Counted from the stretch's first letter, positions 3,715 to 21,847 are shown. The stretch is DNA of 64,000 bases from Oceanispirochaeta sp. (GCA_963666275.2 CAXXOA010000001.1:2176001-2240000); one strand, 5' to 3'. Notes: generated from the letters alone by a model not told the origin. Numbers and translations: made by a program.

Positions 3715-3734
3715 GATTAATGGGGAAATAATAA

Positions 3735-4640: not shown

Positions 4641-4874
4641 GAAACCTGATAGGAATCTCTCTTTAATGTTCTTTTCCTGTAACAAATATTCATACACAGT
4701 TTCATTGATTTTTTTGCTGAAACCGTCAAAAAAACGTTTGTCTGTCTAAAAGGACCGTGGTAAAATCAATAAAATCAATAATTTATTCATTATTCAGCCC
4801 GAAAAAGTTTACTCCCGTAGATTTAATGACAGATGATAAAATTTATGACAAAAAGTTTTTCAGAGGCATAAAAA

Positions 4875-5384
4875 ATGAAAGCAGAGCACATTAATCCTTT
4901 TCTGGGTTCCACACTGAATATTTTTGAAAGTATGCTGGGAGAACAGCCCGATGTAGGACAGAAATCCCTTATAAAGAATTTTTCCAGTCACCGGTGGGAT
5001 ATCTCCGGGATCATTGGGATCACAGGGACTGCCGAAGGGGTCGTAGCCATCAGGCTCACAGAGAATCTTGTTCAGAAAACTCTGGAAAAATCCGAGATCA
5101 TCTGGAATACTCCGGAGGAAAAAGAACAGATCATAACAGGAATGGTCGGAGAAATTGTCAATATGATCGCCGGCAATGCTCTGGGAGAGATTACCCGCTT
5201 TGATCTGGATATCACCGTTCCCTTTGTTGTTCAGGGGACCAATCACAGCATCGGATGGCCCCGGAATAACCCGATCATTGCCATACCTTTCATTACCCCC
5301 TGGGGTCCATTTGAAGTGAATGTGAGCATGAAGGAAAATTTCTACCATTCCCTGCAGACACTTCCTACCATGGCAGCCAACTGA
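4875..5384 (+). CDS. cheX: Chemotaxis phosphatase CheX
   Basis: HINPF start, DISGIIGITG, GEIVNMIAGNA (ExxN motif), DITVPFVVQG. Confidence 0.85.
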   Translation: MKAEHINPFLGSTLNIFESMLGEQPDVGQKSLIKNFSSHRWDISGIIGITGTAEGVVAIRLTENLVQKTLEKSEIIWNTPEEKEQIITGMVGEIVNMIAGNALGEITRFDLDITVPFVVQGTNHSIGWPRNNPIIAIPFITPWGPFEVNVSMKENFYHSLQTLPTMAAN

Positions 5385-5469
5385 AAAGGCACTCTCATTG
5401 CCTTTCCTGCCTGCTTTTTCTGCCGCCCATCTTCTGCTCATCAGATAGGAAACGCTTTTAAAGGGACTG

Positions 5470-5494
5470 AAAAAAACCGGCTATTCAGCCGGTT
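5470..5494 (-). terminator. Rho-independent terminator
   Basis: ACCGGCT-attc-AGCCGGT stem plus T-run on the minus strand. Confidence 0.6.
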
Positions 5495-5516
5495 CAGATT
5501 TCAATTACCCCTTTTT

Positions 5517-6746
5517 CTAATCTCTGTATAGGGCATCGACGATTTCTTCCGCTATAATACCAAAGAGCTTTTCTTCCGCTTTTTCCGCTTTTTCATCGGC
5601 AGAAGCAAAACTCAGCAATGGGATATTCTCTTTTTTCTTCACATAGGAATCTCCCGCAAAACTGCTGTTTTTCACATCAAAAAGACGCCCATGAACAGTC
5701 ATATAGATTCCGTTTTTACCCAGTCTTCCCGGACTTCTGGTATCGTAGGTACAGCCCATTATATGATAGAGAATATAGAGATAGTCCAGATCCATCTTTT
5801 CGGCCAGTTCTAAAGCCGTCTTATCAAAGTCTTCGTTGTAATCTTCTGTAAAAGAGACACCGGTAAAAGTTCCCTCTGTTTTAAAGTTGTCTTCATAAAT
5901 CACAGAGGGATAGGGAGTCAGAGTGTTCATAAGTTCCTTCTGGGAATAAATATCCGCCTTATACTCCGACTGGGCATAGGAGTCCATTTTGTTCACAATA
6001 TTCCAGGTGGCATAGTTATCATCCACCGAGAGAAAGGCAATGCGGGCATCAGCCGGTATCCCCTGGAAGTCCTCATCCTCAGGGACAAAATACTGTTTTG
6101 TTTTTCCTTTGAACTTATACCCCGTGGTTGTAATGGGAAAGGGCTCTTCCATCAGTTCCATAGTTTCCATGGAGGCGCTGATGTCCATGGGTTTCACCGA
6201 TTGTCCCTGCCCGTCCATAAGCCAGCCTTCTGTAAGAACTTCTATCCCGTCAATCTGATCATTAATCAGGGCTACCCTGTCATAATTGCCATAAGGATTT
6301 TCTTCATACGTGAGAACCATATCCCCCAGATAGGCAAAATCAGAATTGATAAGATCCAGTTCTGATTCCGTGGCATAGACATTAATGGCGGCAAGTTGAA
6401 TCCCAAGGGCATCTATCGGCTTTTCCTGTATAAAATAGCTGATCCCTTTAACTTCATAACGCCCCCGGGGAAGTGATTTGTAAAAGACTTCGTTTTGCTG
6501 AATTTCAAGGTATTCAATAACTTCCTCTCCATTTTCCAATTCCTTTGATAGAATCAGTGCCGCGGCCCTGTATTTTTCCGGAGGGATATTTTTTTCGGGT
6601 ATATTGATAGAGACTTTACCTGTGATATAGACGATTTCATCCGAAACCTGCTGGCCCGGAGCCAGATTTTCCGTATTCATGGACATACAGCCTGTGAGAT
6701 TAAAAAAGAGAAGAGAGAGAGTTAGAGCATAAACCTTTTTTTTCAT
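5517..6746 (-). CDS. Hypothetical lipoprotein
   Basis: 409 aa ORF, GGAGG RBS, signal peptide ending in lipobox LTGC. Confidence 0.75.
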   Translation of the reverse strand: MKKKVYALTLSLLFFNLTGCMSMNTENLAPGQQVSDEIVYITGKVSINIPEKNIPPEKYRAAALILSKELENGEEVIEYLEIQQNEVFYKSLPRGRYEVKGISYFIQEKPIDALGIQLAAINVYATESELDLINSDFAYLGDMVLTYEENPYGNYDRVALINDQIDGIEVLTEGWLMDGQGQSVKPMDISASMETMELMEEPFPITTTGYKFKGKTKQYFVPEDEDFQGIPADARIAFLSVDDNYATWNIVNKMDSYAQSEYKADIYSQKELMNTLTPYPSVIYEDNFKTEGTFTGVSFTEDYNEDFDKTALELAEKMDLDYLYILYHIMGCTYDTRSPGRLGKNGIYMTVHGRLFDVKNSSFAGDSYVKKKENIPLLSFASADEKAEKAEEKLFGIIAEEIVDALYRD

Positions 6747-6892
6747 AAATCCTCCAATAATTGTTTACATTTACGAGGTTTTATAATATACACATGTTTA
6801 TATTATTACAATAATGTGAACAAAATTTTATTTTTTATTTGTGCTGAAAACTAATCTAGCTCGTGGTACAGTTTAAAGGTATGGGGTCAAGG

Positions 6893-7549
6893 TCACCCCT
6901 GCCCTAAGGCCATCTTATCCGCCTCATAATTGGCATTAATCCGATCCATCCGGTTCATCTGCCCTGGCATCTCTTGCCTGCCGACTTGAGGCGGCGCAAA
7001 ACTCTGCCCACCGGCAGGCTGCCCCATAAAAGGAGACGCCCCGGAAGCAGCCCCCCGGCTCATTCCTCCCGGATGGGACAAAGTATCAGGGTTCCAGACA
7101 GAACCAGCCTGATTCTGCCTGACAGCTTTCACCGCGGCCGGTTTCCCATTGCGAAATGAAACCGTATTTCCTTGCCCTGAGAGTCCCTGAGTGTTTGGCT
7201 TGCGCAATGTCAGCCGGGAGGGAGGGGGAAATCCTTTCCCTGAAAGAGAATTACCTTTTACGGCTGTTGCAGTTTTCTCAACGAGTGTTTTTCCGGAGGG
7301 ACTTGAACTTGTGGAACCGGAAGAAATTGAAGCTTCAGGAAATACCAGATTCTCCACCCGGGATCCTGCGGCCTGAGGTTTCAATGCCTGAACACTATTC
7401 CTGGAAGGATTGATCCTGTACCCCAGGTTGCGGTAACCCTGACCGCCGAAGGAAGCGGTTGCCAAAGGGATCCGTTTGCTAACCCGGGGAATTCTGCTTA
7501 TTGGCGCTGCCTTTGGTGACGTCATACCGGGCAACGCCCTCCATTCCAC
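6893..7549 (-). pseudogene. Orphan 3' fragment of the 1087-aa tape-measure-like gene (repeat copy 4), no cassette downstream
   Basis: Translation nearly identical to residues near the C-terminus of 16144..19407; ends at MALGQG* before the variable tip. Confidence 0.85.
6896..7530. repeat. Direct repeat of 16277-16910
   Basis: Nucleotide-level near identity by eye. Confidence 0.9.
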
Positions 7550-7736
7550 CTACTTACTCTATAGCTTTTGCTATCAGCGGTTGCTTCATAAGATCCAATT
7601 TACCTGCAAACCATTAGGGTTGTCTGGTACAATGCCTTTCTTATGATCAACTATTCTTTCAAATCCAGAAATGCTCCGTACATCCAGCCTTTGATATAGC
7701 TTTCTTTCAATACGATTTTAAAGCAATTCATAATTT

Positions 7737-8252
7737 CTAATCGTTATAGACAATCAGTTCTCGATCTGTCACATCAATAATTGATTCACTATCAGCATCA
7801 AAATAGTAAACAAGTCTGTAAGTGTCTATTGTTTCTTTTCTGAAAGGGGTATCCTCTGAAGTTATTACAGAAAGAAAATCAACGTGCATATCTTTAATAA
7901 ATCCTGACTGATTCCTTAAGTATTCATTTTCAAACATGGAAATAATTTTTATATCAACAAGACTCTCAACTCCATTATCAAGATGTCTGGTCATTACTAA
8001 AATAGAGCATTTTTTATAAACCCTACGATACCCTGAAAGGTCACTTTTTACATCTCCAACCGTAAAAGATCCAAAATCATTCAGAAAATTAGTGAAATCA
8101 CCAGAGATTTCCAAGCCGATAAGGGAAGTGAGACCTAATGTTTCTCCACTTTCTATAATCGACTTAAGCTTTAATTCCAAGTCCTCTACTGTCAAACTGA
8201 ACAGAAAATGGGTTATTAATAAGAACAGGGTAATAAAAGATATTTTTTTCAT
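7737..8252 (-). CDS. Exported protein, putative immunity for the M23 effector
   Basis: Signal peptide MKKISFITLFLLITHFLFS; directly downstream of the effector; AT-rich. Confidence 0.6.
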   Translation of the reverse strand: MKKISFITLFLLITHFLFSLTVEDLELKLKSIIESGETLGLTSLIGLEISGDFTNFLNDFGSFTVGDVKSDLSGYRRVYKKCSILVMTRHLDNGVESLVDIKIISMFENEYLRNQSGFIKDMHVDFLSVITSEDTPFRKETIDTYRLVYYFDADSESIIDVTDRELIVYND

Positions 8253-8263
8253 TTATACTCCTC

Positions 8264-9472
8264 TTACTGTATATCCGTTGGATCAACGTAATAACGATTA
8301 TACCGATTCAAAACATCTGCATCTGGAGTGTCTACAATAGAGGCATTATCTCTATCCACATAACGCACTTCCATATGAAGATGTGGTCCAGTACATGCCG
8401 TTCCTGTATCTCCCGCATTGGCAAGATGATCCCCAACTTTAACAGGATCTTTATCTTTAACTTTTATTGAACCTTTCTGAAGATGAAATAGATTAAACTC
8501 ACCCCCATCCTCCAAAGTAATTCTTATAAAATAACCCAATTTCTTATTATGTTTAGCCTCTTTCACAACCCCTTCCACAGGCGAATACACAGGCTGCCCA
8601 ATCGTCTTATTCTGATTATTTTCTCTCCAAACCCAATCCTCACCAGCATGGGGATACGAAGCATCATAAGGATCTGTTTCTGCCAAGAACCCACCGCCTT
8701 CAACGCGCTTCCACCCCGGTTCAAACTGCTTGTAATACTCCGCAACCTCATCAGGCAGTTTTATCCGCCTCACTTCATTTTTCGCCAAATTCTCCCTCAA
8801 ATCCCAATACCACCTATCCATATCGTGGATATTATCCGGATTCTTTGTTCTGAATCTCATACCGGCTTCCGTCATCAATCCTATAACATACTCATCCGTC
8901 AATTCAGCCCCATCCATAGCTCTTTCCAGAATTTCTGTCAGACCTCCCTGAATGGCATCTTTTCCGATTGTTTTCGTTCCATTATAGGATGACATAATCT
9001 CTCCATAAGAGTTCCGCAAATGACCGCCTCCATGAAACTCCAAATAGCCATCATCCGTTAAGAACCAATAGTTATTACCGTTTTCATTATTCGGTAGGAT
9101 ATTCTTCTCGTCAACATCAATAGCCAAATTCAGAAGAAAATTAACTTTGGGGTCAATTGTTTGCTGATAATGGGGACCAAGCTCCTCACGCACGATAGCG
9201 TCTGTGGGCTGAGGTATATCAAGCCCCAAAAGAGACATCCATTTTTTGGATAAATTGAGAACAGTCCGCAGTTGATTATAATCATAAGATTCGGATTCAT
9301 GTATAAAAGCGTTCAATCCGGTCCTGTCAAAATTGGAGGCAATAATCTTTATTTCATTTAACACAGTCTCTTTAAACTTTCCGGGCCTATTCCCATTTAG
9401 GACATCATGAAGAGTAGAAACAGCATTCACCATCATTATTTGAATATCTAATCTCGAATATCCGTCAACCAT
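8264..9472 (-). CDS. Putative CIS effector 3: shared N-terminal domain plus C-terminal M23 peptidase
   Basis: HAGED, VYSPVEGVV, LFHL, GDTGTACTGPHLHMEV M23 motifs; no signal peptide. Confidence 0.8.
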   Translation of the reverse strand: MVDGYSRLDIQIMMVNAVSTLHDVLNGNRPGKFKETVLNEIKIIASNFDRTGLNAFIHESESYDYNQLRTVLNLSKKWMSLLGLDIPQPTDAIVREELGPHYQQTIDPKVNFLLNLAIDVDEKNILPNNENGNNYWFLTDDGYLEFHGGGHLRNSYGEIMSSYNGTKTIGKDAIQGGLTEILERAMDGAELTDEYVIGLMTEAGMRFRTKNPDNIHDMDRWYWDLRENLAKNEVRRIKLPDEVAEYYKQFEPGWKRVEGGGFLAETDPYDASYPHAGEDWVWRENNQNKTIGQPVYSPVEGVVKEAKHNKKLGYFIRITLEDGGEFNLFHLQKGSIKVKDKDPVKVGDHLANAGDTGTACTGPHLHMEVRYVDRDNASIVDTPDADVLNRYNRYYVDPTDIQ

Positions 9473-9483
9473 AATCAGTCTCC

Positions 9484-10305
9484 TTATATCCCAAATATCT
9501 TTGTAATATGCTGGGCGACTTGGATCTTCTCATCTTCCGTTCCGTACATCATTTCTTCTTTAAAGTGATCCACAAGTTTCTCTTTGACTTCTACCAAGCA
9601 CTCCCGATACTCTTCCGTAGTCATTTCAATAACCTTACCTGACGGGCTTAAATACCGGTACATTTCAATAGGTTCGGATTCTGTAAAATCTTCCAGATCT
9701 TTATCCGACGCATCCTGTTCTGCAATCAGTTCTTTATTCTTGAAGACAAGATCATCCTGTTTCCATATCTCAAATAAGTCGCTATCTTCCGGATTATGTC
9801 CTGTCTGTCCTTCCAGTTTATAGGCTTCTTTTTCCGCTCCCGACACATCTTCCCGATAGGTCAGCCGCTGTCCTTTTTGGTTCTGCCTGACATGCTCTAC
9901 CTCATGCAGCAGGAGGGCTTCTCCTTCTTCTGTATGAGGGGCATAACTACCTGAGGAAAAATAGATATCCTTTCCGAAAGTCAGAGCATCCGCTCCAGCT
10001 TTGTGGGTGATTTCTTCCGCATAGGGGCCCGTGTGGATTTTCACTTCGGAAAGGTCTTTTCCATAAGTCAATAAAAAGAGGTTGATTAAAGCTGTATCCG
10101 GCGCAAAAATATGGTCATAAACCTCTTTTTTGGCTTCATATGAAGTGATCAGGCCATCTGGTTTAAACTCTTGATCCGGGTTCTGCATTCTGGAGTTATT
10201 GTTACCTGTCTTCTCTATTACATTAAGATAAGCCCCATTTGCCAATTCAAATAGATTCGTGAATTTATTATGCCAGGAAATTGTTACTTCTTGATTACCA
10301 CTCAA
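9484..10305 (-). CDS. DUF4157 (eCIS core) domain protein, copy 3
   Basis: DLSEVKIHTG...AGADALTFGKDIYF...LLLHEVEHVRQ. Confidence 0.9.
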   Translation of the reverse strand: MSGNQEVTISWHNKFTNLFELANGAYLNVIEKTGNNNSRMQNPDQEFKPDGLITSYEAKKEVYDHIFAPDTALINLFLLTYGKDLSEVKIHTGPYAEEITHKAGADALTFGKDIYFSSGSYAPHTEEGEALLLHEVEHVRQNQKGQRLTYREDVSGAEKEAYKLEGQTGHNPEDSDLFEIWKQDDLVFKNKELIAEQDASDKDLEDFTESEPIEMYRYLSPSGKVIEMTTEEYRECLVEVKEKLVDHFKEEMMYGTEDEKIQVAQHITKIFGI

Positions 10306-10835
10306 CTTTCTACCCTCTTGATATCTTCAACAATATTATGAACATCAATAGCAGTATATTTTTTTCTTTGGCTTACACTTCCCCCGGCATGCCCCACCGA
10401 ATGACTCTGCGTCTTGGCCAGCATCCTCTGCTCTCCATACTCACCCTGCCCCAAGGCCTGCTTATCCGCCTCATAGTTCGCATTAATCCGGTCCATCCGA
10501 TCCATCTGCCCCGGCATCTCCTGCCTGCCGAACTGAGGCGGCATAAAGCCCTGCCCTCCGGCAGGCTGCCCCATAAAAGGAGACGATCCGGAAGCAGCCC
10601 CCCGGCTCATTCCACCCGGATGGGACAAGGTCTCAGGGTTCCAGACAGAACCAGCCTCATTCTGCCTGACGGCTTTTACCCCAGCCGGTTTCCCATTGCT
10701 AAATGGAATCGTATTCCCTTGTCCTGAGAGTCCGGGAGTGTTTGGCTGTCCCACTACCAGCTTGGGCGAAGGGGTAAAACTTTTTCGGGAAAGTGAACCT
10801 CTTTTTTTTGGCAAAATCCCCGCAAGATGTTTCAA
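10302..10835 (-). pseudogene. 3' fragment of the tape-measure-like gene (repeat copy 3) with an alternative C-terminal tip
   Basis: QPNTPGLSGQG...HSVGHAGG matches the C-terminus of the 1087-aa protein; DNA 10381-10750 matches 16214-16583. Confidence 0.8.
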
Positions 10836-11013
10836 GTATGGGGGTAATCCTCCTGTTAACCGATCATTTGAATATTTTTAATTGCGGGGTCGGGCTATAC
10901 GTTTCAATTCGCTTAATCGGTACGCTTTTCGGACTACCTCCGGGCCGCCCTGCGTACCTGGCTCATTTTCACTACTATCCCTTTTTAGTGTTAATTTTTT
11001 ATTTACCTGAAAA

Positions 11014-11178
11014 TTACTTCTGACTAAGAAAAGCTCTGATACTGGATTCAAAATCAGGTAATTCCCATTTTATCGCCATGTCTAAAGGAGTTTCTCCATT
11101 ATTATTTTCTTTCTTAGAGAAAAGATTATCCTCTACTAGATATTGGAGTATTTCATTGTTTTCATAGCCTACGGCAAA
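11014..11178 (-). pseudogene. Ankyrin-repeat gene remnant (3' end only)
   Basis: Hand translation FAVGYENNEILQYLVEDNLFSKKENNNGETPLDMAIKWELPDFESSIRAFLSQK*; no start codon ahead of the repeat. Confidence 0.65.
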
Positions 11179-11951
11179 CCTGCAACATATACAACATATT
11201 TTGCAGGATAGTAATTACCAGTAGACCCAACTCTAAAAAATTCGGTCCGATCATTATTGATTTTGTAAGCAGAGACAGCAACTGAATACAGTCCTTCAGC
11301 TATTATCGATTCTGTAATCATCAATTGATCACTTTCAACATTTCCCAGAATATCGTCATAATCAGTAAAACCCACAAATAGAGAATCTGGTAAACTAATG
11401 CGATTATCCTTTATCCCAATAATTGAAAAACTCTTATTGTTGTCCACTGATTTAAAAAACAAACTATAAAAGTCTACATTAGGAATATTATTAGTCCATA
11501 CAATTTCCAAGTTAGCGGAATCATTACGTTCCGTAGGATAATCAGTAAGCTCTATCTCATTATATATAAAAATAGTATTTGTCTCTATTTTATGTTTAGA
11601 AATAATAAAACTATCAAAACTTCCATATATAATTTTGGGTGAAGTAAGAGTATTTTCTGGATGTGAATATTGCCAGATTGGAAAATCTGGAGAAACATCA
11701 ATAGTTAAATCTATTATATCATTTTCATCTATTTTGACAGAAAAGCTATTGTTTTTATCCGTCTTTACATCGCACCCAGAGAATCCTTGTGAATTCTTTA
11801 CTCTGTATGAAATATGCAATGGGAAATCTTCAACATTTCCATAAGTTTCTACAGTCCCTTTGACAGTTGTGAAATTGCAACTTAGTAATATTAGAGGGAA
11901 TAATACAAATAAATATTTTTTCATATTAAAATCAAACTTGTCATTCTTCAT
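11169..11951 (-). CDS. Lipoprotein, putative immunity for effector 2
   Basis: MKKYLFVLFPLILLSC lipobox; overlaps the effector stop; AT-rich. Confidence 0.6.
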   Translation of the reverse strand: MKNDKFDFNMKKYLFVLFPLILLSCNFTTVKGTVETYGNVEDFPLHISYRVKNSQGFSGCDVKTDKNNSFSVKIDENDIIDLTIDVSPDFPIWQYSHPENTLTSPKIIYGSFDSFIISKHKIETNTIFIYNEIELTDYPTERNDSANLEIVWTNNIPNVDFYSLFFKSVDNNKSFSIIGIKDNRISLPDSLFVGFTDYDDILGNVESDQLMITESIIAEGLYSVAVSAYKINNDRTEFFRVGSTGNYYPAKYVVYVAGLP

Positions 11952-12751
11952 TTTATAGACGGCGCAGCCCCAGAGATTGCGTCAACTCCTTGATATGGAA
12001 AGATAATTTTTTTCAGTTCATCTTTTGATAATATTTCAGTCAAAGCATCCGCCATTAAATCATGATCATTAAATAATAATCTTTTTGCAATTTCGCTATC
12101 TGTAATCCTAGTCCATTCAAAATCTGGTTGATTCAAAGCGGCACCTTCTCCATCCCCTGGTAAATATTGTTCAAGAGTCCAACCTGTTATAGCGGTTTTG
12201 TTTCTATTAGAATATACTGTAATTCTTAACTGCCCCCATCCACCTTCTATTGCATCGGTAATACTGTGAGCTTTTGTACCAGCTCCAGAGTCATCAATAC
12301 CAACAGGTAAGCATCCTTCAATTACCCGTGCAATGACTGGATATTCTGATTCTATTACTTCAGAAGGGAACTGGAGCCTTGTATTATTATTTGAAATATT
12401 TTGGTGCCTAACATATGGATTCCCATATGAATCATTAAAATATTGTATTAACCCTTTTGTTGGTAAATCGCGCATAGAAACATCGCAAGGATTTGATAAC
12501 TTTAAGTAATTTGATTGAGCTGGATTAATACCAATAAGATGTAACCAATACACACAAACTTTCTGAATCTCATTTAATTCATGATTTCCATATTTAGAGA
12601 ATTCTTCGAAGAAATCATTAAAATTGAAATTCTTGAGCTTACCTTTTAACTCTTTATTATTCGGGTTCTCTTCTTGCCCTCCAAAAATTTCCAAAATGGA
12701 TCTATATGTTGATTTGGCAAGGTCTTTAATCTCATTTTCTTGATTCCCCAT
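11948..12751 (-). CDS. Putative CIS effector 2: shared N-terminal domain plus unrecognised C-terminal domain
   Basis: N-terminal ~80 aa align with effectors 1 and 3; same position in the cassette. Confidence 0.65.
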   Translation of the reverse strand: MGNQENEIKDLAKSTYRSILEIFGGQEENPNNKELKGKLKNFNFNDFFEEFSKYGNHELNEIQKVCVYWLHLIGINPAQSNYLKLSNPCDVSMRDLPTKGLIQYFNDSYGNPYVRHQNISNNNTRLQFPSEVIESEYPVIARVIEGCLPVGIDDSGAGTKAHSITDAIEGGWGQLRITVYSNRNKTAITGWTLEQYLPGDGEGAALNQPDFEWTRITDSEIAKRLLFNDHDLMADALTEILSKDELKKIIFPYQGVDAISGAAPSIK

Positions 12752-12802
12752 TATATCTCCTTGTAAATATCGTAGACAGTCTGTTGGTGGGATGGATAAA
12801 AC

Positions 12803-13606
12803 CTAGCTTTTAAAGATCTTCATCATTTTATTTATGACTTCAGTTTTCTCTTCATCAGAACTGTACATCATAGATGTCTGAAATTGGTCTTCAAGTTTTT
12901 CCTTTATGATCTTTAATGAGCTTTTATAGTCTTTTTCTGACAATTCATGGACTCTTCCGGATTGACTTACATAGCGATATGTCAAAGGTTCATTGTGAGA
13001 AGAGAAATCTGCCAAGTCTTTATCAATAATATCCAGTCCATTCGTCAAATCCTGATCTTTAAAGATAAGATCCTTCTGTTTTTGGAGATCAAACAGTTCT
13101 CTATTCTCAGTATCGATATCTGATAAACCTTCCTGACTATTGGCCTGTTTTTCTGCCTTATCGATATCTTCTTTATATATGTGACGATCCTGTCTACGAT
13201 GCTGCTCAACATGTTCAGCTTCATGCATCAGCAATTGTCTGCCGTATTCAGTATCCGGAGAAAAGCTTCCGGATGAAAAATATATATTCTCACCCATTGT
13301 CAATGCATCTGCACCAGCCTTGTGAGTGATCTCCTCGGCAAAAGGACCTGTATGGATTTTCACATGAGACAGATCACTTCCATAACGGATGAGAATCTCA
13401 TTTATCAAAGAGCTATCAAGCGCATGTATTCGGTCTAATCGCTCTTTTTTCATTTCATAGAGACTTATCAAACCTTCAGTTCTTAGCTCATTATCCGGAT
13501 TCTGCATTCTAGAGTTTTTGGTTGTTGCATCGCTAGATGGTAACAGATAATGCATGGTTACCAGTTCAAGAAGATTTATGAATTTTCCATAAGATTCTTG
13601 TCCCAT
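12803..13606 (-). CDS. DUF4157 domain protein, copy 2
   Basis: DLSHVKIHTG...AGADALTMGENIYF...LLMHEAEHVEQ. Confidence 0.9.
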   Translation of the reverse strand: MGQESYGKFINLLELVTMHYLLPSSDATTKNSRMQNPDNELRTEGLISLYEMKKERLDRIHALDSSLINEILIRYGSDLSHVKIHTGPFAEEITHKAGADALTMGENIYFSSGSFSPDTEYGRQLLMHEAEHVEQHRRQDRHIYKEDIDKAEKQANSQEGLSDIDTENRELFDLQKQKDLIFKDQDLTNGLDIIDKDLADFSSHNEPLTYRYVSQSGRVHELSEKDYKSSLKIIKEKLEDQFQTSMMYSSDEEKTEVINKMMKIFKS

Positions 13607-13607
13607 A

Positions 13608-13973
13608 TTATGACTCCCTGTTTAAATCATCCAAGACATCATAAATAAATACACTTTTAGTATTTAGTCTTCTTGATCCAGTTCCCTCAGCATGCCCCAC
13701 CGAATGACTCTGCGTCTTCGCCAGCATCCTCTGCTCCCCTTGCCCCAGTGCCATCTTATCCGCCTCATAATTCGCATTAATCCGGTCTATCCGGTTCATC
13801 TGCCCCGGTATCTCCTGCCTGTCGACCTGAGGCGGCACAAAACCCTGCCCAGCGGCAGGCTGCCCCATAAAAGGAGACGCCCCTGAACCAGCCCCCCGGC
13901 TCATTCCGCCCGGATGGGACAAAGTATTAGGATTCCAGACAGAACCAGCCTGATTCTGCCTGACAGCTTTTAC
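13608..13973 (-). pseudogene. 3' fragment of the tape-measure-like gene (repeat copy 2) with an alternative C-terminal tip
   Basis: DNA 13690-13973 matches 16220-16512 with a 9-bp deletion (GQGEQRM vs GQGEYGEQRM). Confidence 0.85.
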
Positions 13974-14016
13974 TGAGAATCATAAAATCCATATTAGTGG
14001 AGAATTCGAAGTGTTT

Positions 14017-14553
14017 TTATTTTAGCTCTGATAGTTGATCATGAAGAGAATGCCATCTATTATCTGCCAAGTCATGCTTATCAACCCATTGTAAAGTTTT
14101 TTGAATTGAAGCAATCTTCCAAAATGGATCTGAATAATCAAGTATTAATAAATCTCCGGTAGATTTGGATAAATAATATTTTCTAGAAAAGATTAATGAT
14201 TCTTTAGAAAAGATATAATCTTCGACATTTCCTAATGTCTCAAAATTTACAGTAACAACACAGATTTCCTCTTCTATTGGTTCCATTAAATTAATATTCA
14301 TTTTCATAGTTTCAATATTGGTTATTTTAAAATGACTAGTTACGACATGAATACTGTTTTTATCTCCTGGTGGAATAGCTATATCTGGGTGATAATAATC
14401 AACAACTGTATAATAATAATCAATGCCGGCTTCAAGCCTTTTATATATATGATTAGACACAATTTTTTCAGCCTGAAATTCCTCACCACTATAAGAGAAG
14501 AAATTAGTAAAAACTAAGAAAATCAAACCAAATAGTTTACTCTTAAAATACAT
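14017..14553 (-). CDS. Exported protein, putative immunity for the NlpC/P60-like effector
   Basis: Signal peptide MYFKSKLFGLIFLVFTNFFSYS; overlaps the effector stop. Confidence 0.6.
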   Translation of the reverse strand: MYFKSKLFGLIFLVFTNFFSYSGEEFQAEKIVSNHIYKRLEAGIDYYYTVVDYYHPDIAIPPGDKNSIHVVTSHFKITNIETMKMNINLMEPIEEEICVVTVNFETLGNVEDYIFSKESLIFSRKYYLSKSTGDLLILDYSDPFWKIASIQKTLQWVDKHDLADNRWHSLHDQLSELK

Positions 14554-15313
14554 TGCTTCTCCTTCTATAATATTCTATTGAAACTTCCGTATAATCTGTT
14601 CTGTTTTTATAATATGATTCTAAGTAATCAGATGTAAATCTTACCCCATTAGGATTATCATCAGAATGTAGTAATGCTCTACGGCCGGACTCTCCTGTTA
14701 TTATAGCTGCATGACCTTGTGTTTTTCCTGTTTTTGGATTTGTAGCACGCCAGACTTTTATATCTCCTGGTTGAGGCTCATCAACTTTCTCTAAATCAGG
14801 ATTATTTCCTATTTCGCCAGTTCTGTAGATTGAAGTATCATTTGCATATGCTATAAACTCAGAACAGTCAACTTTTATTGGTTTTTCAGGGACAATCATG
14901 GAACCATTATATTCCCCATCATAACCGGTTCCATAAGGAGTTCCTAATAATTTTTCACCCCTTTTTATTGGATTAATATTATCTATATCTTCAACAGGAA
15001 TATCAAAGACTTTTTTTTGCCCAGACTCTTCTCTTAAATATTGCAACAACTCTTTATGCATATTTACAGGATCAATTCTTAATATAGCCAACCATTTTTC
15101 ACAAACTGTATAAATACTCTTCAATTCATCTTTTCCATAGGAACTTGACTCTCTGATAAAATTATTCACATTGAAATGATTGATAAATCGTCCCAATTCA
15201 TTTCTGCTTTCTTGTGGAAAACTCCCGGGCCTTTTTCCTTCAAAAACATCTTTAATCGTGAAATAAGTAAATATTGCCAATGACCGGGTATCAAACTTTG
15301 TCAGTTCACTCAT
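14543..15313 (-). CDS. Putative CIS effector 1: shared N-terminal domain plus NlpC/P60 (CHAP-like) peptidoglycan hydrolase
   Basis: LGTPYG, VDCSEFIAYA (Cys), PQPGDIKVW, GHAAII (His), LLHS. Confidence 0.75.
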   Translation of the reverse strand: MSELTKFDTRSLAIFTYFTIKDVFEGKRPGSFPQESRNELGRFINHFNVNNFIRESSSYGKDELKSIYTVCEKWLAILRIDPVNMHKELLQYLREESGQKKVFDIPVEDIDNINPIKRGEKLLGTPYGTGYDGEYNGSMIVPEKPIKVDCSEFIAYANDTSIYRTGEIGNNPDLEKVDEPQPGDIKVWRATNPKTGKTQGHAAIITGESGRRALLHSDDNPNGVRFTSDYLESYYKNRTDYTEVSIEYYRRRSNVF

Positions 15314-16143
15314 TACAGGATTCTCCCATCAAATAACTTAACCAGATTATTTATAGTAGCGTTTCGTTGATCCTCACCACTGTATCGTATCTCATCTTCA
15401 AACTTTTCTTTCAGCCTGGAAAGAATCTCTTTCAAACAACTCTGATACTCTTCTTTCGTCAATTCATGAGTACGACCGGATAAACTATTATACCGATATA
15501 TTACAGGATCATTACTGGTCGTATACATTTCAAGATCCTGCTCTACCGCATCAAGTCCATCATTAAGATCCGTATTCTTAAATATCAAATCATTCTGTTT
15601 GAATCGTTCAAAAAGATCTATATCATCGAAATGACTGCCACTCAGACCCTCCTGATTGAGAGCCTCCAGCTCCGATTTTTCAAAATCTTCCCGGAATGTT
15701 AAGTTTTGGCCCTTTCGGAATTGATTTACATGCTCTAATTCATGCAGAAGCAGTTCTTTTCCCTTTTCCGTTTGAGGAGCAAAACTACCTGATGAGAAAT
15801 AGATATCATTCCCCATAGTTAAAGCCTCTGCACCTGTTTTATGTGTAATCTCTTCAGCATAAGGTCCAGTATGAATTTTCACATTTTCCAAGTCTAACCC
15901 ATATAAAAGATAAATGTTATTTATTAAAGAGACATCCAATGCGAAGACACGATCCAACCTATGTTTTTCCTGGACCTTTGCAGTGACCAAATTCTCAGTT
16001 CTTAATTCACGATTAGGATCAGGCATTTTAGGATGAAAACTTAATGCTTGTTCTGAAACACCGATATATGATCCGATAGCAAGTTCTACAGATGTAAGAA
16101 ACAGATTAAGACTGGAAAAAATTACTTCCCGTTGACCTCCCAT
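15313..16143 (-). CDS. DUF4157 domain protein, copy 1
   Basis: DLENVKIHTG...GAEALTMGNDIYF...LLLHELEHVNQ. Confidence 0.9.
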   Translation of the reverse strand: MGGQREVIFSSLNLFLTSVELAIGSYIGVSEQALSFHPKMPDPNRELRTENLVTAKVQEKHRLDRVFALDVSLINNIYLLYGLDLENVKIHTGPYAEEITHKTGAEALTMGNDIYFSSGSFAPQTEKGKELLLHELEHVNQFRKGQNLTFREDFEKSELEALNQEGLSGSHFDDIDLFERFKQNDLIFKNTDLNDGLDAVEQDLEMYTTSNDPVIYRYNSLSGRTHELTKEEYQSCLKEILSRLKEKFEDEIRYSGEDQRNATINNLVKLFDGRIL

Positions 16144-19100
16144 TTAAAACTCCCTCTGTAAATCCTCAATCACATCATCAATAAAAACAGTTCTATTTGT
16201 TTTTCTGATTTCACCCCCGGCATGCCCCACCGAATGACTCTGCGTCTTCGCCAGCATCCTCTGCTCTCCATACTCCCCCTGCCCCAGTGCCATCTTATCC
16301 GCCTCATAATTCGCATTAATCCGATCCATCCGATCCATCTGCCCCGGCATCTCCTGCCTGCCGAACTGAGGAGGCACAAAGCCCTGCCCACCAGCTGGCT
16401 GTCCCATAAAAGGAGTCGCCCCGGAAGCAGCCCCCCGGCTCATTCCTCCGGGATGGGACAAGGTATCAGGATTCCAGACAGAACCAGCCTGATTCTGCCT
16501 GACAGCTTTTACCGCAGCCGGTTTCCCATTCCTAAATGGAATAATATTCCCCTGTCCAGAGAGCCCGGGAGTGTTTGGCTGTCGCAATGTCAGCCGGGAC
16601 GGAGGTGTAAAATCTGTTGCGGAAACAGAACTACCTTTTACGGCTATTGCAGTTTTCTCTATGGGATTGGTTCCGGAGGGAATTGAACTTGTGGGACCGG
16701 AAGAAACTGAGGCTTCCGGAAATACCAGATTCTCCACCCGGGATCCAATAGCCTGGGATTTCAAAGCCTGAACGTGGTTCCTGGAAGGATTGATCCTATA
16801 CCCCAGGTTTCGATAGCCCTGACCACCGAAAGAAGCGGTTGCCATAGGGATCCGTTTGCTGACCCGGGGGATTCGGCTTATTGGCGCGGCTTTTTGCGGC
16901 GTCATACCGGACAAAAGAGAGGGAGCCGAAACTCCCTGACTTCCAACAGTACGGGTCATGGCCTGTTTTATAGGGCTCCGCATAGCGGAAGGAACGCCCT
17001 CCCACTGGCCGGAAGCTGCAGAAGCAATCAGAGGGATTAACTCCTCTCTCGGGAGAATCAATTCAGGTGTTACACCGCCCTCTTCATAAAAGGTATCTGC
17101 CACAGCCTGTATGACCTCACTCTGTTCAGGAACAAACGTGGTGATCGGAGGAATCACCATATTTGTTCCAGCTTTAATCTGGGACACACCAGAGACTTTT
17201 CCTGAGGCAATCATACTCTGCTGTTTTTCTATTGAGGATATACCGGAAGTACCCAGTTTACTCTCCAGCCGGTTTTTCAACAGATCAAACTCATCCCCGG
17301 TAAAAGCCTGCGACTCCCACTGTTTCACCGCCTCAGCGCTGACAGTTTCACTCAGCCCCGCCTTGCGGTAGACCGCCCTCACTTCTTCCAGCTGAGCCCG
17401 ACTCAAAGGACCGGCCCCCTCTGAGGGAACCGACAGAACAGCCAGAAGATCTCCCGTCAGGGGGAGGACTGTTTCGGGGAGGACAGCCGGCAGGGTCTCT
17501 TCGCTGGTGCCTCTTACAGAACCGCCCTTTTCCAGGACCAGTCCGGTTGAAACGTCCAGAGGTTTGTACAGGCTCTCACGGGGAACCGACTTCACCGGGG
17601 CGGCCATAAGGGCGGCGCTGTCCAGGACTATTCCCAGGGACTCTTCAAAATAGACCTCTTTGGAGGCTATATTCCCTGCATCGGGGCTCTTCCTGTTTAT
17701 GGCATCCACCGAACGGACCAGGTCGCCTACGGTCATCCCTGTACTCATCTGTACCGTCCGGTATTCAGCCAGAGCGGATGACAGCTTTTTGTTAAACCCC
17801 TTCCGGTCCACAGGGGGAATATTCAGTTTTCCGACGGTTTCTTTCAGAGAAGCAGCCTCTCCTTCGGTCAGCTTTGAAGCCGCAGAGGCTTTCTCCAGGT
17901 CTGCTGACTGAAAGAAATCAAATTCCTTTGGAGATCCTGCTTGTCCGAAGGGCTTTTTCCCCTGGCACAACTCTCCCAGAGACACTTTGCCGGTCAGAAC
18001 CGCATCGGACTGCTTCCCTGTTTTCCCCAGACCACTGTTCCAGGCTTCATCCAGAACAGCCGTATCATCCAGTGTCGTATCCTGCAGCAAAGGCAGAACC
18101 GCTGAGATAAAGGGCATCACATGACCCAGTTCTTCACCGGACACTTCTTCACCTTTCCTGTCCAGCCAGGCCTCCGCTTCGGGAGTCAGATCAGAGGCAA
18201 TGGCATCCCGGTCTTCTTTAATAAAAGGATTAAGAGGAAGCTCTATCACCTCCTCTCCCGCACTCAGAATCTCTCCGGCCTGCTTATTAGTTAGGCCGCT
18301 CTCTTTCAGCCGGGCAAAGGCTCCCAGAGTCAGACTGGCCGCTGCGGCCTCTTCCCGTTCACTGCGGTCAGCCTGAACCAAGTCTCGGGTCTCGGTGCTT
18401 CCTTCTTCCAGAATTTTCACACCCTTCCCCAACTTCTCCCGGTACACCTTTTTCACCTCATCCGGTGTTCCCTGGGGAAGGACGACTCCCACAGGGGAGG
18501 TTCCCTTCAGTTCAGCTTCCACCCTCTTCCAGGCGGCATCCGGATCGTTTTTTACAGCCCCGTAGAGCTCTCCCTCCAGGGTGTAGTAGTACTCTTCCTC
18601 TTCCTGTACCAGTAACAGAGCGGTATCAAATATAACCGGGCCGTCCAGGGTAGAGACCATCCGGATCTCCCTGGTTTGACCTTCCGGCTCGGCGGTAATG
18701 CCCCCTTGCCGGCCGCTTGTCTCATCCACCATAACCCAGTCGCCCTCTTTGTTCAGAGCGCCGAACCAGCCCTGTTTCTCCACCCGGTAGTTGGGGTCAT
18801 ACTTTTCCCGGTTCCAGTCAAAACCGCCTTTGTCACTGGTCCGGTCAAACCGGAGCCGGGCTTTTTCTTTGTTATAGGTTTCGCTGACGCTGCCGTCTCC
18901 ATAGAGGTAGATCCGGGATGAACCTGTTTCGGCGGCAGAGTTTTTCTTTATTCTATTCCGGCGCATTCCGGCGGGTTTCAGATCTTCCAGATTCCGGCCC
19001 AGGCTCTCCAGATGTTTTTCTGTTAACACAGTCATAGCCCCGGTGGTTCCGGCAAAACTCCAGAGCATCTGCTGGCTGCTGCGGTTCAAAAGCATATCTT

Positions 19101-19407
19101 TCCGGAAGGCATCGATCCGTTCGGAATCTCTTCTTCCTCCGGGGAAGAACTCATCGGGGTTGAAAAACACAGAGTCCTGTTCTGCCTGGCCGGAAGCCAC
19201 GAGCTGGGACTCTATACTGTGCCGGGCCTCTTCTTTCCGGGCCTCCCCTTCGGGGCCGTCCAGACTCAGACCTTCCTCATAGAGATCAAAGGCCTTCTGA
19301 ATCTCTTCGTCCTTCTTTGTATAAGAGTCCTTTGAAAAATAGCTCAGCAGTTCGTCAATCATATTTTCACCCCTTTGTTCCCGCTCAAAAACGATCCTCA
19401 CACTCAC
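16144..19407 (-). CDS. Large CIS protein in tape-measure position with a low-complexity C-terminus
   Basis: 1087 aa; directly follows the chaperone/DUF6760 pair, as tape-measure genes do; function is positional inference. Confidence 0.5.
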   Translation of the reverse strand: MSVRIVFEREQRGENMIDELLSYFSKDSYTKKDEEIQKAFDLYEEGLSLDGPEGEARKEEARHSIESQLVASGQAEQDSVFFNPDEFFPGGRRDSERIDAFRKDMLLNRSSQQMLWSFAGTTGAMTVLTEKHLESLGRNLEDLKPAGMRRNRIKKNSAAETGSSRIYLYGDGSVSETYNKEKARLRFDRTSDKGGFDWNREKYDPNYRVEKQGWFGALNKEGDWVMVDETSGRQGGITAEPEGQTREIRMVSTLDGPVIFDTALLLVQEEEEYYYTLEGELYGAVKNDPDAAWKRVEAELKGTSPVGVVLPQGTPDEVKKVYREKLGKGVKILEEGSTETRDLVQADRSEREEAAAASLTLGAFARLKESGLTNKQAGEILSAGEEVIELPLNPFIKEDRDAIASDLTPEAEAWLDRKGEEVSGEELGHVMPFISAVLPLLQDTTLDDTAVLDEAWNSGLGKTGKQSDAVLTGKVSLGELCQGKKPFGQAGSPKEFDFFQSADLEKASAASKLTEGEAASLKETVGKLNIPPVDRKGFNKKLSSALAEYRTVQMSTGMTVGDLVRSVDAINRKSPDAGNIASKEVYFEESLGIVLDSAALMAAPVKSVPRESLYKPLDVSTGLVLEKGGSVRGTSEETLPAVLPETVLPLTGDLLAVLSVPSEGAGPLSRAQLEEVRAVYRKAGLSETVSAEAVKQWESQAFTGDEFDLLKNRLESKLGTSGISSIEKQQSMIASGKVSGVSQIKAGTNMVIPPITTFVPEQSEVIQAVADTFYEEGGVTPELILPREELIPLIASAASGQWEGVPSAMRSPIKQAMTRTVGSQGVSAPSLLSGMTPQKAAPISRIPRVSKRIPMATASFGGQGYRNLGYRINPSRNHVQALKSQAIGSRVENLVFPEASVSSGPTSSIPSGTNPIEKTAIAVKGSSVSATDFTPPSRLTLRQPNTPGLSGQGNIIPFRNGKPAAVKAVRQNQAGSVWNPDTLSHPGGMSRGAASGATPFMGQPAGGQGFVPPQFGRQEMPGQMDRMDRINANYEADKMALGQGEYGEQRMLAKTQSHSVGHAGGEIRKTNRTVFIDDVIEDLQREF

Positions 19408-19415: not shown

Positions 19416-19625
19416 CTATCTGGTTTGGTCTGCCCGAAGGGCTTCTACATAGTTCCTGGTATCAGAATTGATCCGGTTGTTGATCTTTTCCAGCTCAGCA
19501 AGCCAGCGCCGCCGTTCGTTCCGGCTCATATCCAGGACATCCCGTCGGCTCCAGTGAAAGTAGTAGGCCAGGTATGCCGTCTCCCCGTAAATATCTCCGG
19601 AAAGACGGCTTATACTTCCCCCGGG
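19416..19625 (-). CDS. DUF6760-like domain, probably the -1 frameshift extension of the tail chaperone
   Basis: YGETAYLAYYFHWSRRDVLDMSRNERRRWLAELEKIN; no start codon at the junction; lies in the -1 frame. Confidence 0.75.
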   Translation of the reverse strand, partial: PGGSISRLSGDIYGETAYLAYYFHWSRRDVLDMSRNERRRWLAELEKINNRINSDTRNYVEALRADQTR

Positions 19626-20341
19626 AGACTCAACTCCACCCGGTTCCTGTTCCCGCAGGAACAAAGGTCTTCCCTATCCCGGATCACTCCGTTATTCAGC
19701 TCATTAAAAAGGTCTACCAGAAAAGCAAAATCCGTCGGAGAGAGTTTGGTAATCACACTGTTATTGATGGACCTCTCAGATCCCAGTTTTTTCACCGTCC
19801 GGGTCAAAAGCCCCACATAAAACCACGAAGGGTTCTCTCTTGTTCTGGGATCCCGGTAAAGAGTCAGGAAATCCCGGCACCGGGCCATTGCCATCTCACC
19901 CCGCACTTTCGACCCCATCTCCGGTTTTAATCCGCTCCCATGGGGTAAACGGAAAGGGCATCTCTCTTTAATCTCATCTACAGCTGTATTCGCAAAAAGA
20001 GAACTGACCGCCAGATCCCTTTTATTCCCGCAGACCGGACATCGGTAGGAGATCTGTTCCCCCTCATTGCGGCTGTTAAAGAGCAACTGGAGATACACAA
20101 AATCCGCCTCGTACAGATCCTCCAGAGTCTCAGCGGTCACTGAGGATAAACTTCCCAGAGAGGAGATCAGCCGGGACAAAAGTTCCAGATCCCTCTGCCG
20201 GTCGTTAAACCGCACACTGTCCAGCTCCTGCAGCACAAGTTCATCTTCCGCTGTGGCATCCCTTAAAAATCCTGTTCTATGGATCACACCATCCTTATCT
20301 TTCAGCCCTAAAGGCAGAGTAAACTCACATCCGGCAGTCAT
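19610..20341 (-). CDS. CIS tail assembly chaperone with two tandem domains, each ending in a Cys-rich motif
   Basis: EFTLPLG...HRTGFLRDATAEDE...ADFVYLQ repeated as FRLPHG...DPRTRENP...TDFAFLVDLFNELN. Confidence 0.75.
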   Translation of the reverse strand: MTAGCEFTLPLGLKDKDGVIHRTGFLRDATAEDELVLQELDSVRFNDRQRDLELLSRLISSLGSLSSVTAETLEDLYEADFVYLQLLFNSRNEGEQISYRCPVCGNKRDLAVSSLFANTAVDEIKERCPFRLPHGSGLKPEMGSKVRGEMAMARCRDFLTLYRDPRTRENPSWFYVGLLTRTVKKLGSERSINNSVITKLSPTDFAFLVDLFNELNNGVIRDREDLCSCGNRNRVELSLPGEV

Positions 20342-20532
20342 GACAGCTTCTCCAGTTTTTGTTCAACGTATTGATTCATTTTTTCGATAGTTTCCAAATC
20401 CAGAGGTTCAAAGGCAAACTCTCTGTAAATATCATCCAGAATCGCCCGGGCCTGATCAGGATAGGGAAAGTCGATTAATTCAAGGTCACCGGTATTTCGG
20501 TTCACTTTCAGGTATTTTCTGTCGTCACTCAT
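20338..20532 (-). CDS. Small hypothetical protein
   Basis: 64 aa, translationally coupled to both neighbours. Confidence 0.65.
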   Translation of the reverse strand: MSDDRKYLKVNRNTGDLELIDFPYPDQARAILDDIYREFAFEPLDLETIEKMNQYVEQKLEKLS

Positions 20533-20900
20533 CAGTTCATCTCCAATTGCCTGAAACGGGGGGCCGATTCATCCCGATGTTCTGTCGCCGAAGGAGCCGG
20601 TTTCATAACCTCTTCTTCCTCATGAGAAATTTCGATCCGCCGGCCGCCTCTTTTCCAGACGACCCTTCCGCCTTCCACGACAAAATCCCGGAATTCCGCA
20701 AAATCATATTTATCCTTTAAATAGAGCATTAAAGAGGTAAAATTGGGGATTTCCGGATCTGCTGCAGAAACAGAAGCCTGAGGAGAGGCCGAGGAATTGG
20801 AACCTTTTTTGTTATACTCCTCATAAAGCATACAAAACCCATCGGTCAGAACCTCACGGCTCAAGTTGTTCAGCCCGGTCATTAAGCTATCATTATCCAC
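20532..20900 (-). CDS. Hypothetical protein
   Basis: Start reassigned to GTG at 20900 after the GAGGAG RBS. Confidence 0.6.
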   Translation of the reverse strand: MDNDSLMTGLNNLSREVLTDGFCMLYEEYNKKGSNSSASPQASVSAADPEIPNFTSLMLYLKDKYDFAEFRDFVVEGGRVVWKRGGRRIEISHEEEEVMKPAPSATEHRDESAPRFRQLEMN

Positions 20901-21621
20901 AAAGAATCTCCTCTTCAAATTTGACCCAGCTCCCCTCCGGCCGGGAGGGGACGTAAGGCAGATTATCCATGCCGGAAGGATTTCCCTGACATCCAAGAAA
21001 AATGACATCCTCACGCTCTGTCAAATCCCAGTCAACATGAGAGAATACACAGTTCAGAAACACACAGCGATCCAGATGGGAAAAGGCAAAAAACGTCCCG
21101 GAGATATGACACCCCATAAACAGGGAATCGCTGATGTTCGTGTGTTTCAAACCAGTGATACCTGAGGGATGGTCTGCCGCAAAAGAACTATTAACAGCGC
21201 AGATGGAGTTCAAAACACCATGGCTGATTTCCGGTTCGATCATGGCAAAATTCTTGAGCCGCACCGAGTCCATTTTCAATCGGGGTCCAGAGCATCCTCT
21301 GAAAGAACCACCATAAAAAGAGGTGTTTCTGATATGAGAACCTCGGAGCTGAGTACTGATAAAAGAACTGTTCGAAAAAGAAGAATCTGAAATCACCATC
21401 AGCTGTAAAGAGCACTGATCAACTACCCCGTTGCAAACCAGGGAGGAGCAAATAATCCCCTGATCCATAACAGCCCGGTACAGGGCAGGCATATCCAGTT
21501 GTTTCCCGGCAAACTTCAACTCGGGAAAAGAACCTTCATTCATTTGCCAGTTTTTCAGCAGAGTACTGTTTATAAGCTCATCCCTGATAAGAGTAAGACA
21601 GCCGGATCCCTGAAAAATCAT
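20893..21621 (-). CDS. Pentapeptide-repeat protein
   Basis: SSFSNSSFISTQLRGSHIRNTSFYGGSFRGC; SLFMGCHISGTFFAFSHLDRCVFLNCVFSHVDW. Confidence 0.7.
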   Translation of the reverse strand: MIFQGSGCLTLIRDELINSTLLKNWQMNEGSFPELKFAGKQLDMPALYRAVMDQGIICSSLVCNGVVDQCSLQLMVISDSSFSNSSFISTQLRGSHIRNTSFYGGSFRGCSGPRLKMDSVRLKNFAMIEPEISHGVLNSICAVNSSFAADHPSGITGLKHTNISDSLFMGCHISGTFFAFSHLDRCVFLNCVFSHVDWDLTEREDVIFLGCQGNPSGMDNLPYVPSRPEGSWVKFEEEILCG

Positions 21622-21827: not shown

Positions 21828-21847
21828 AATCTATCCTTCTAACGCCC

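Follow-up and report, generated by a model that had tools for sequence, protein, structure and literature searches.

Introduction

Toxin systems of the polymorphic type include the rhs-CT, cdiA-CT and mafB-CT orphan modules (PMC4436062, PMC3967940), in which a full gene is followed by 5′-truncated copies with alternative ends and immunity genes, and in which the shared homology permits recombination. Here we describe a related arrangement in a stretch of 64,000 nt from Oceanispirochaeta sp. (GCA_963666275.2, CAXXOA010000001.1:2176001–2240000), hereafter called the window. It concerns a large gene, termed the carrier gene, of an extracellular contractile injection system (eCIS)-type machine. 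As in rhs, cdiA and mafB loci, in-register, 5′-truncated copies of the 3′ part of this gene lie downstream of the full gene. The exchanged end is of a different kind, however: in the known modules it is the toxin domain, whereas here it is a non-catalytic tail of ~23 residues, and the enzyme domains are encoded in a separate, putative toxin gene behind a gene for a DUF4157 protein. For rhs, recombination has been demonstrated, whereas the evidence presented here is indirect and comes from comparisons between genomes; the delivery machine, moreover, is of the eCIS type.

In the vgrG-1/tap-1 effector modules of Vibrio cholerae, the 3′ end of the loading gene has the G+C content of the effector and co-segregates with it, and exchange takes place by recombination in the conserved core (PMC4557670, PMC5361080). 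Vibrio keeps orphan immunity genes alone and employs DUF4123 proteins and a type VI secretion system (T6SS), whereas the window contains complete spare modules, each with its own handle copy, together with DUF4157 proteins and an eCIS-type machine. The unit of exchange is closer to the tap-1 module than to rhs, cdiA or mafB. In the VgrG/Tap-1/Tde system of Agrobacterium, a short variable C-terminus of the carrier has reportedly been proposed to set adaptor–effector specificity during loading. We know of no array of spare C-termini in that system, and its carrier is VgrG, whereas here it is a protein in tape-measure position whose binding is putative. The Streptomyces proteins Sle1/Sle2 and Tme (PMC13277306, PMC11126660) share with our locus a large tape-measure-related CIS protein beside a small DUF4157 gene, variable C-termini and sometimes an immunity gene. 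Unlike the carrier studied here, which has no fused domain, Sle1 and Tme include the effector domain in their own chain, and the N-terminal coiled coil of Sle1 is the part bound by Sle2; the available text of these papers describes neither repeats nor spare cassettes, and it is by these descriptions that we set the present locus apart. For the eCIS DUF4157-associated toxins (EATs), the main text of PMC8213781, as far as available, likewise reports that DUF4157 adjoins toxins at the operon 3′ end and that some form toxin–immunity pairs; it describes no repeated handles or arrays, and the string 'spirochaet' has 0 occurrences.

How an eCIS chooses its cargo and what DUF4157 does are stated to be open questions (PMC8213781, bioRxiv 10.64898/2026.05.27.728243; available text). 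No eCIS orphan array was found in the literature searched, outside which lay subscription journals and supplements, where eCIS catalogues may list such loci. We deal with a real and recurrent, though apparently undescribed, variant of the orphan-module systems on an eCIS-type machine. On balance, we favour the view that a contractile injection system of a spirochaete is here equipped with a polymorphic array of effector cassettes, with the tail as an address and the copies as homology handles. The best reading, in analogy to orphan rhs/cdiA modules, is that the array represents a reservoir of spare toxin-and-antidote cassettes.

Results and discussion

Four copies of the carrier 3′ end

The window corresponds to C1:2176001–2240000 of a 5.27-Mb, three-contig genome, and its homologues are labelled Spirochaetales; genomes, contigs, loci and proteins are denoted by our own handles (G, C, L and P). 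A preliminary description of the window had proposed that the 3′ end of the carrier gene is repeated at three downstream sites. Self-BLAST, a repeat finder and alignment bore this out: the segment 16214/16276–16914 recurs at 13684–13973 (copy 2), 10381–10806 (copy 3) and 6896–7534 (copy 4; 639 nt, 86%, gapless, E = 0), copy 1 being the repeated part of the full gene itself (16214–16914). All four lie on the minus strand. Copy 3 proper spans 10381–10742 and passes into the diverged yet alignable 5′ continuation described before, which retains 63–73% identity to the full gene up to ~10806. Overall, the copies are 86–92% identical to the full gene and all in register; in agreement with the preliminary description, they differ by substitutions and a sole indel, a 9-nt in-frame gap at the EYG codons of copy 2. 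The longest exact runs shared with the full gene comprise 45 nt (copy 2), 47 nt (copy 3) and 38 nt (copy 4), and the 5′ borders differ from copy to copy. Self-BLAST revealed no further copy of the 3′ end in the 5.27-Mb genome.

The repeats were also correctly recognized as richer in G+C (0.55–0.60) than the cassettes (0.33–0.39; genome 0.478), and the cassettes are foreign in composition. Synonymous divergence between the copies (dS) amounted to 0.26–0.43, with dN/dS ratios of 0.07–0.28 in nine of nine comparisons, which argues for captured alleles rather than recent duplicates, as had been suggested. Divergence thus took place between coding alleles, and capture came afterwards. Each of the three groupings found support among the nine informative sites (3, 5 and 1), a number that does not suffice to map crossovers.

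That the repeats reflect an assembly artefact or a simple tandem duplication is highly improbable. Assemblies of relatives often break at these repeats, as expected for an artefact, yet the layout recurs in the 2- and 3-contig genomes G346 and G486. Tandem duplication was rejected because the copies differ by 8–14% with a synonymous bias and the effector and immunity parts are unrelated from one cassette to the next. Furthermore, contigs from three runs of one sample, possibly the source of the window, span the copy–cassette junctions with 0 mismatches and 0 gaps, a count that rests on the 24 pieces listed out of 84. This result argues against an artefact, the support not being independent. 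Among the joints listed in contigs of four runs, none connected repeat to repeat; since contigs miss crossovers inside identical stretches, this absence is no evidence on switching. The three joints that were listed had sides of 23–24 nt and are probably spurious. One loose contig end near 10357 had no match in the genome, and the spacer before copy 3 (~10885–10997) contains 113 nt that match (74%) a stretch downstream of the G014 cassette.

Copy 4 is truncated before the tail and cassette-less. It stops at GQG*, against 47–60 nt that match the end of an insertion sequence (IS) on contig C2. This isolated IS end (6830–6889) abuts copy 4, and the element on C2 (HTH_Tnp_1 + rve) is presumably IS3-like, given its two-ORF layout. 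Copy 4 is an IS-truncated, beheaded fourth module rather than a closing repeat, and the idea of n + 1 flanking repeats as an integration footprint was therefore rejected.

Composition of the cassettes

A series of DUF4157, effector and immunity genes had been assigned to three of the copies. Three such cassettes are present, one each behind the full gene, copy 2 and copy 3, with copy 4 left empty. New with respect to the preliminary description are the tail specific to each cassette, an N-terminus common to the effectors, and the truncation of copy 4 by an IS. Unrelated tails of ~23 codons close the full gene, copy 2 and copy 3 (16144–16213, 13608–13683 and 10302–10380, respectively, minus strand), and each tail abuts the respective DUF4157 gene. 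The G+C content of the tails is 0.28–0.29 (0.29 for cassette 1) vs. 0.57–0.60 immediately upstream, so that the tail is compositionally part of the cassette behind it. The cassette unit can thus be delineated as the last ~23 carrier codons, a stand-alone DUF4157 gene, an effector gene and a putative immunity gene.

The DUF4157 genes 1 (15313–16143; PF13699, E = 1.6e-19), 2 (12803–13606; E = 3.3e-20) and 3 (9484–10305; E = 1.6e-20), all on the minus strand, are the only three in the genome and follow the full gene, copy 2 and copy 3, respectively. The product of gene 1, a putative adaptor, has kept the HExxH motif; the downstream genes are 48% identical to gene 1, for which a fold search gave no meaningful match. 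The effectors, also on the minus strand, share an N-terminus of ~85 aa. In effector 1 (14543–15313) it is joined to a weak CHAP/cell-wall-hydrolase-like domain (PF05257, E = 0.0098, below the cut-off; phrog_8781 endolysin, E = 0.0018), and a PDB search yielded no match. Effector 3 (8264–9472) contains an M23 peptidase domain (PF01551, E = 8.3e-15; M23 structures, E = 3.8e-9). The C-terminal part of effector 2 (11948–12751) belongs to no known family; a homologue search, like one with the alignment of the effectors, recovered nothing but proteins of the window itself. Its assignment as portal-like, based on an Atlas score of 0.96 to portal-like clusters, was rejected in view of low recognition and no alignment.

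The genes that follow on the same strand are putative immunity genes by position and by signal-like N-terminal stretches. Gene 1 (14017–14553) has a weak signal-like N-terminus and no Pfam or PHROG family; gene 2 (11169–11951) encodes a hydrophobic stretch with a lipobox-like cysteine behind it; gene 3 (7737–8252) has a signal-peptide-like N-terminus. The DUF4157 and effector genes of both orphan cassettes are intact, coupled and equipped with Shine–Dalgarno (SD)-like sites. Prediction of a complex of DUF4157-1, the effector-1 N-terminus and the last 70 carrier residues reached a median of 0.29 (mark, 0.32). Folding of the spacers was unremarkable (z = –1.3 and –0.5), and a promoter scan gave 43 sites vs. 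28.9 in shuffles, which is uninformative in AT-rich DNA. An integron-like or site-specific array was rejected, as no recombinase matched among the 48 window ORFs scanned and the 5′ borders of the copies differ. An Rfam scan found tRNA only.

Recurrence in other spirochaetes

The carrier family was detected in 18 of 401 genomes of the class, with open frames of 931–1,442 aa among 18 full genes. With the C-terminal end as query, matches were obtained in 18 of 401 genomes from another family and, in a class sample that overlapped to a large extent, in 16 of 400; a phylum-wide sample yielded three of 401 genomes, every one already in the set, and a metagenome scan confirmed none of 122 candidates. 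At locus level, 29 Spirochaetia genomes were examined. They contained 46 distinct ends, 40 of which were directly followed by DUF4157, and at least two ends occurred in 11 genomes spread over five families. This count omits G402, G504, G508, G632 and G690 (weak or fragmentary, of the 18 matched genomes) as well as G089, G253 and G240; L024 and L025, which probably duplicate other loci, were excluded, and P0003, P0006 and P0007, which appear to be proteins of G001, G002 and G014, were counted once.

Tandem arrays behind the long gene were found in four genomes: the window's own, G346, G486 and G602. Copies in the latter three are up to 96–100% identical to the long gene or mutually (G346, 95–98% over 1.1–1.4 kb; G602, 497 nt, 100%), and G486 has four units behind a frameshifted long gene. 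In further genomes (G182, G257, G513, G475, G050, G455 and G204), the arrays are distributed over several contigs, most of the breaks lying at the repeat; the pairs in G204 and G475 each share one tail and are weaker cases. A probable additional array, with three ends and three different tails, is recorded for one 33,870-bp contig of a close lineage, on which P0010, P0131 and P0132 are encoded. Sheath genes were found in five of five multi-copy genomes in one test and in two of five in another. In all 35 scored units the G+C content drops at the tail (mean 0.555 to 0.38). The genes in the effector slot join a constant N-terminus to varied known toxin domains (GH-E, AHH, Ntox30, SHH, endonuclease, C39, M15 and M23), others having no family; the N-terminal alignment is weak, with 20% mean column identity. 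Cassettes thus vary among relatives, which is what the preliminary description had set as its test: a lack of such variation would have spoken against it.

Several loci showed peculiarities of their own. In G486 (C1, ~3.017–3.035 Mb; L103/L104), a non-coding element of 170–570 nt lies between all cassettes; it has internal inverted similarity repeats, sometimes nested partial copies, and no Rfam match. Behind an AHH-nuclease effector in G059 (C14, ~1–6400; L017) sit seven tandem paralogues of ~206 aa (~75–80% at the nucleotide level), with at least one more beyond, forming an immunity-like array. L064 and L027 contain classical pairs of an orphan effector C-terminus and immunity gene within single cassettes, a second level of variation. 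P0002 and P0004, full-length carriers with different tails, are each recorded on a 2,407,828-bp contig and possibly represent two units of one genome. In the 2-contig genome G346, the entire system including sheaths resides on the 165-kb second contig (C2) with IS copies nearby; this contig is a possible transfer route.

Cassettes move as blocks

Co-variation was analyzed for 34 of 47 units, after removal of those with no adjacent DUF4157 or a third gene <100 aa, of one duplicate, and of six units in which the third gene was missing, cut or unlike an effector. With the upstream block controlled, partial Mantel tests related the tail to DUF4157 (r = 0.31, p = 0.0005) and DUF4157 to the effector N-terminus (r = 0.34, p = 0.0005). 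Within G182, G346 and G602, the upstream block scored 0.89–0.96, the tails 0.15–0.23 and DUF4157 0.20–0.28. Single-genome clades of DUF4157 were rejected in three of three tests (quick trees; groups tested after the first tree). Orphan classes grouped with cassettes located behind full genes elsewhere: G346 copy 2 with G626, G346 copy 3 with G627/G577, and one G182 unit with G198. Five close full-length proteins were 85–99% identical in columns 1–600 and mosaic beyond; their tails, of four unrelated kinds, shared 18–39% in nine of ten pairs. The window's tail class was present on two other bodies (P0002 and P0010). G257 and G455 are 98% identical in the blocks common to both and have different sets of internal cassettes. 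Taken together, the comparisons show that the tail, DUF4157 and the effector N-terminus are passed on as a set, from one lineage to another as well as between first and downstream positions.

Proposed mechanism and alternatives

In the mechanism we propose, the conserved helix of the carrier would tie it to the particle, and the variable tail would select the cognate DUF4157 protein, which would hold the N-terminus of the effector; loading would then be restricted to the cassette whose tail the full gene carries. The GC-rich copies would be homology handles acquired along with the foreign cassettes. If RecA-type recombination joined the full gene to copy 2 or 3, a stretch of 2.53 or 5.83 kb would be lost and, the copies being in register, the full gene would be refitted in frame with tail and cassette 2 or 3. 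The excised circle could recombine into the gene of a relative and so lengthen the array there, while downstream cassettes may meanwhile provide immunity by read-through. Other bacteria are the most likely targets. The earlier idea that recombination changes the expressed cassette therefore holds in principle, with switching inside a strain as a proposal; loading, binding, toxicity and such switching are steps that we infer. Precedents are given in the available text of three reports, namely orphan rhs recombination (PMC3967940), co-segregation of the tap-1 3′ end with effectors (PMC4557670), and binding of a DUF4157 protein to a tape-measure-related protein and the tube initiator (PMC13277306).

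A number of observations weigh against this proposal. The species is represented by one strain and no switch was seen; at 86–92% identity, intragenomic crossover between the window copies should be rare, and recombination with copy 4 would remove 9.38 kb, so that the full gene would end up without a cassette. A single end only was present in 18 of the 29 genomes. The tail and effector N-terminus co-vary weakly (r = 0.10, p = 0.03; 34 units), linkage alone can yield all co-variation, and kin among the 34 units are not independent. The three DUF4157 proteins of the window group in a clade of their own (100/100), so that the cassette donors here would be unseen close kin. Two different cassettes of G475 stand behind one and the same tail; in G346 unit 1, G455 and G475, the DUF4157 gene comes after the immunity gene; and G455 contains a tail-only copy with ~43 nt of homology. 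Effector 2 has no known domain, and effector toxicity and immunity are putative. Finally, DUF4157 of AlgoCIS is dispensable for loading according to the available text of bioRxiv 10.64898/2026.05.27.728243, and a stand-alone mini-gene in G570 favours action in trans.

The latter gene, of 67 aa, encodes helix plus tail, has its own SD-like site and lies between a DUF4157 gene and an effector gene; the long gene and sheath were not found in the 95%-complete G570 genome. The locus (C3; L115, 9518–13030) comprises DUF4157, the 67-aa gene, effector and immunity-like gene beside D5-primase, HTH, umuC and S24 genes. It brings up the alternative that all cassettes are active at once, the partial copies being translated from internal starts into short adaptors (helix + tail, ~65 aa or more) that act in trans, so that several effectors would be loaded per strain without rearrangement. 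In line with this, copies 2 and 3 keep open frames with in-frame ATGs and SD-like sites 63–80 codons from the end, as do the copies in G346 and G602 with regard to ATGs and SD-like sites, and a terminator scan listed no site in the spacers between the cassettes. Yet purine-rich coding strands match SD sequences by chance, and the SD scores have no shuffle control; the G486 copies have no start near the helix and those of G455 and G204 no scored start. The copies, at 300–1,400 nt or more and with differing 5′ borders, exceed what a mini-protein needs, and their low dN/dS is equally expected from captured alleles. We regard this alternative as rather unlikely.

A broader variant, tentative and rather doubtful, is that the last ~65 carrier residues form a self-contained loading module read by a DUF4157 class, within a two-mode armoury that includes a parallel VgrG-PAAR spike array. 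The conserved helix would dock on the particle, and the variable helix would be the address for one stand-alone DUF4157 adaptor class. Recombination would put a new address on the full gene, and free mini-versions, exemplified by the putative mobile element of G570, would load or donate payloads in trans; the parallel array would act on the VgrG-PAAR spike gene.

Alternatively, the copies could be scars of accretion: homology-facilitated recombination would insert incoming cassettes at the 3′ end of the gene and shift the older ones further downstream, where they are kept for immunity or decay, with negligible re-activation. Such a model is published for the Vibrio T6SS (PMC5361080, available text) and fits the loss of the copy 4 cassette to an IS, the frameshifted G486 long gene, a spike-side orphan that ends in a 141-aa fragment, and immunity-like arrays without handles at other loci (G059). 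Unlike the immunity-only arrays of Vibrio, however, both orphans in the window have intact, coupled DUF4157 and effector genes with SD-like sites, and the copies in G346, G486 and G602, being 96–100% identical to the long gene or mutually, are able to recombine. We consider accretion without re-use unlikely.

The carrier gene and its surroundings

The carrier gene (16144–19407, minus strand) had been described as a tape-measure gene of 1087 aa. The frame of 1,087 aa from the GTG at 19407 stands, but the start is probably the ATG at 19362, giving 1,072 aa, the length of the database entry; the SD-like site scored –7.9 kcal at the ATG vs. –2.9 at the GTG. The tape-measure label is supported by synteny: the carrier is the largest tail-region gene directly after the tail assembly chaperone-like gene (19610–20341, minus strand; phrog_508, E = 7.7e-9) and the DUF6760 gene (19416–19664, minus strand; PF20546, E = 1.1e-12), an order identical in six of six mapped relatives. 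In contrast, there was no Pfam, PHROG or PDB match to known tape measure proteins, and fold searches gave TM ≤0.08 of the query with a low-confidence model (mean pLDDT 57, pTM 0.32). We thus assign the putative tape-measure role by gene position. The model shows a helical/mixed body, predicted disorder at residues 825–1024 and two short C-terminal helices, 1026–1042 and 1077–1086, which correspond to the conserved block and the variable tail, respectively. No membrane helix was predicted, the model contained no long coiled coil, and neither Pfam nor the model revealed a fused toxin or functional domain at the C-terminus. An Atlas search of the protein scored 0.78, a lead only.

The structural operon (20338–39470, minus strand; Pfam) encodes gp25, baseplate J, two sheaths, two gp19 tubes, CIS_tube-LysM, hub, Tail_P2_I and an AAA ATPase; its order is kept in G001, G002 and G014 and largely in G059. 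Tube, sheath, baseplate (gp25, J), hub/spike, PAAR and AAA ATPase genes are clustered together with the three genes for the eCIS core domain DUF4157, and the machine, known here from its genes alone, can be classified as an eCIS-type contractile injection system. The tail terminator DUF4255 and a tail fibre had no Pfam/PHROG matches among the scanned ORFs, which include genes of 183, 458 and 519 aa of no family. Genes for FHA, VWA, radical SAM, pentapeptide, DUF1257, DUF2997 and AAA proteins, conserved in relatives, are embedded in the operon (20338–23968, 31511–31912).

VgrG and VgrG-PAAR genes are on the opposite strand to the operon. A spike-side counterpart of the array (41041–49169, plus strand) consists of the VgrG-PAAR gene, two cargo genes, a VgrG-PAAR 3′ copy and two further genes. 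The copy (46703–47289; 587 nt, 91%, self-BLAST) has its own extension and is followed by a PF25302-domain gene, a 141-aa C39 fragment and then an unrelated gene; the locus may thus represent a second, orphan-like module. G346 likewise repeats VgrG-PAAR (1.86 kb, 91%). A 40–55-nt repeat (~46555–46615) with at least 18 other matches in the genome precedes the spike-side copy.

Conclusions

The 34 units constitute natural sets of cognate and non-cognate tails, DUF4157 proteins and effector N-termini, so that the adaptor idea can be tested by swaps. If the loading-module variant were true, DUF4157 would gain a defined adaptor role, and contractile injection systems a modular code for the choice of cargo. 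With a unit of exchange of another kind, the loci extend to a machine of the eCIS type the orphan-module strategy of Rhs, contact-dependent inhibition (CDI) and Maf, and recombination could change which toxin is fitted to the injection machine. The loci suggest that non-model spirochaetes, Treponema from animal guts among them, possess a weapon system directed against bacteria; many of its effector domains belong to no known family.

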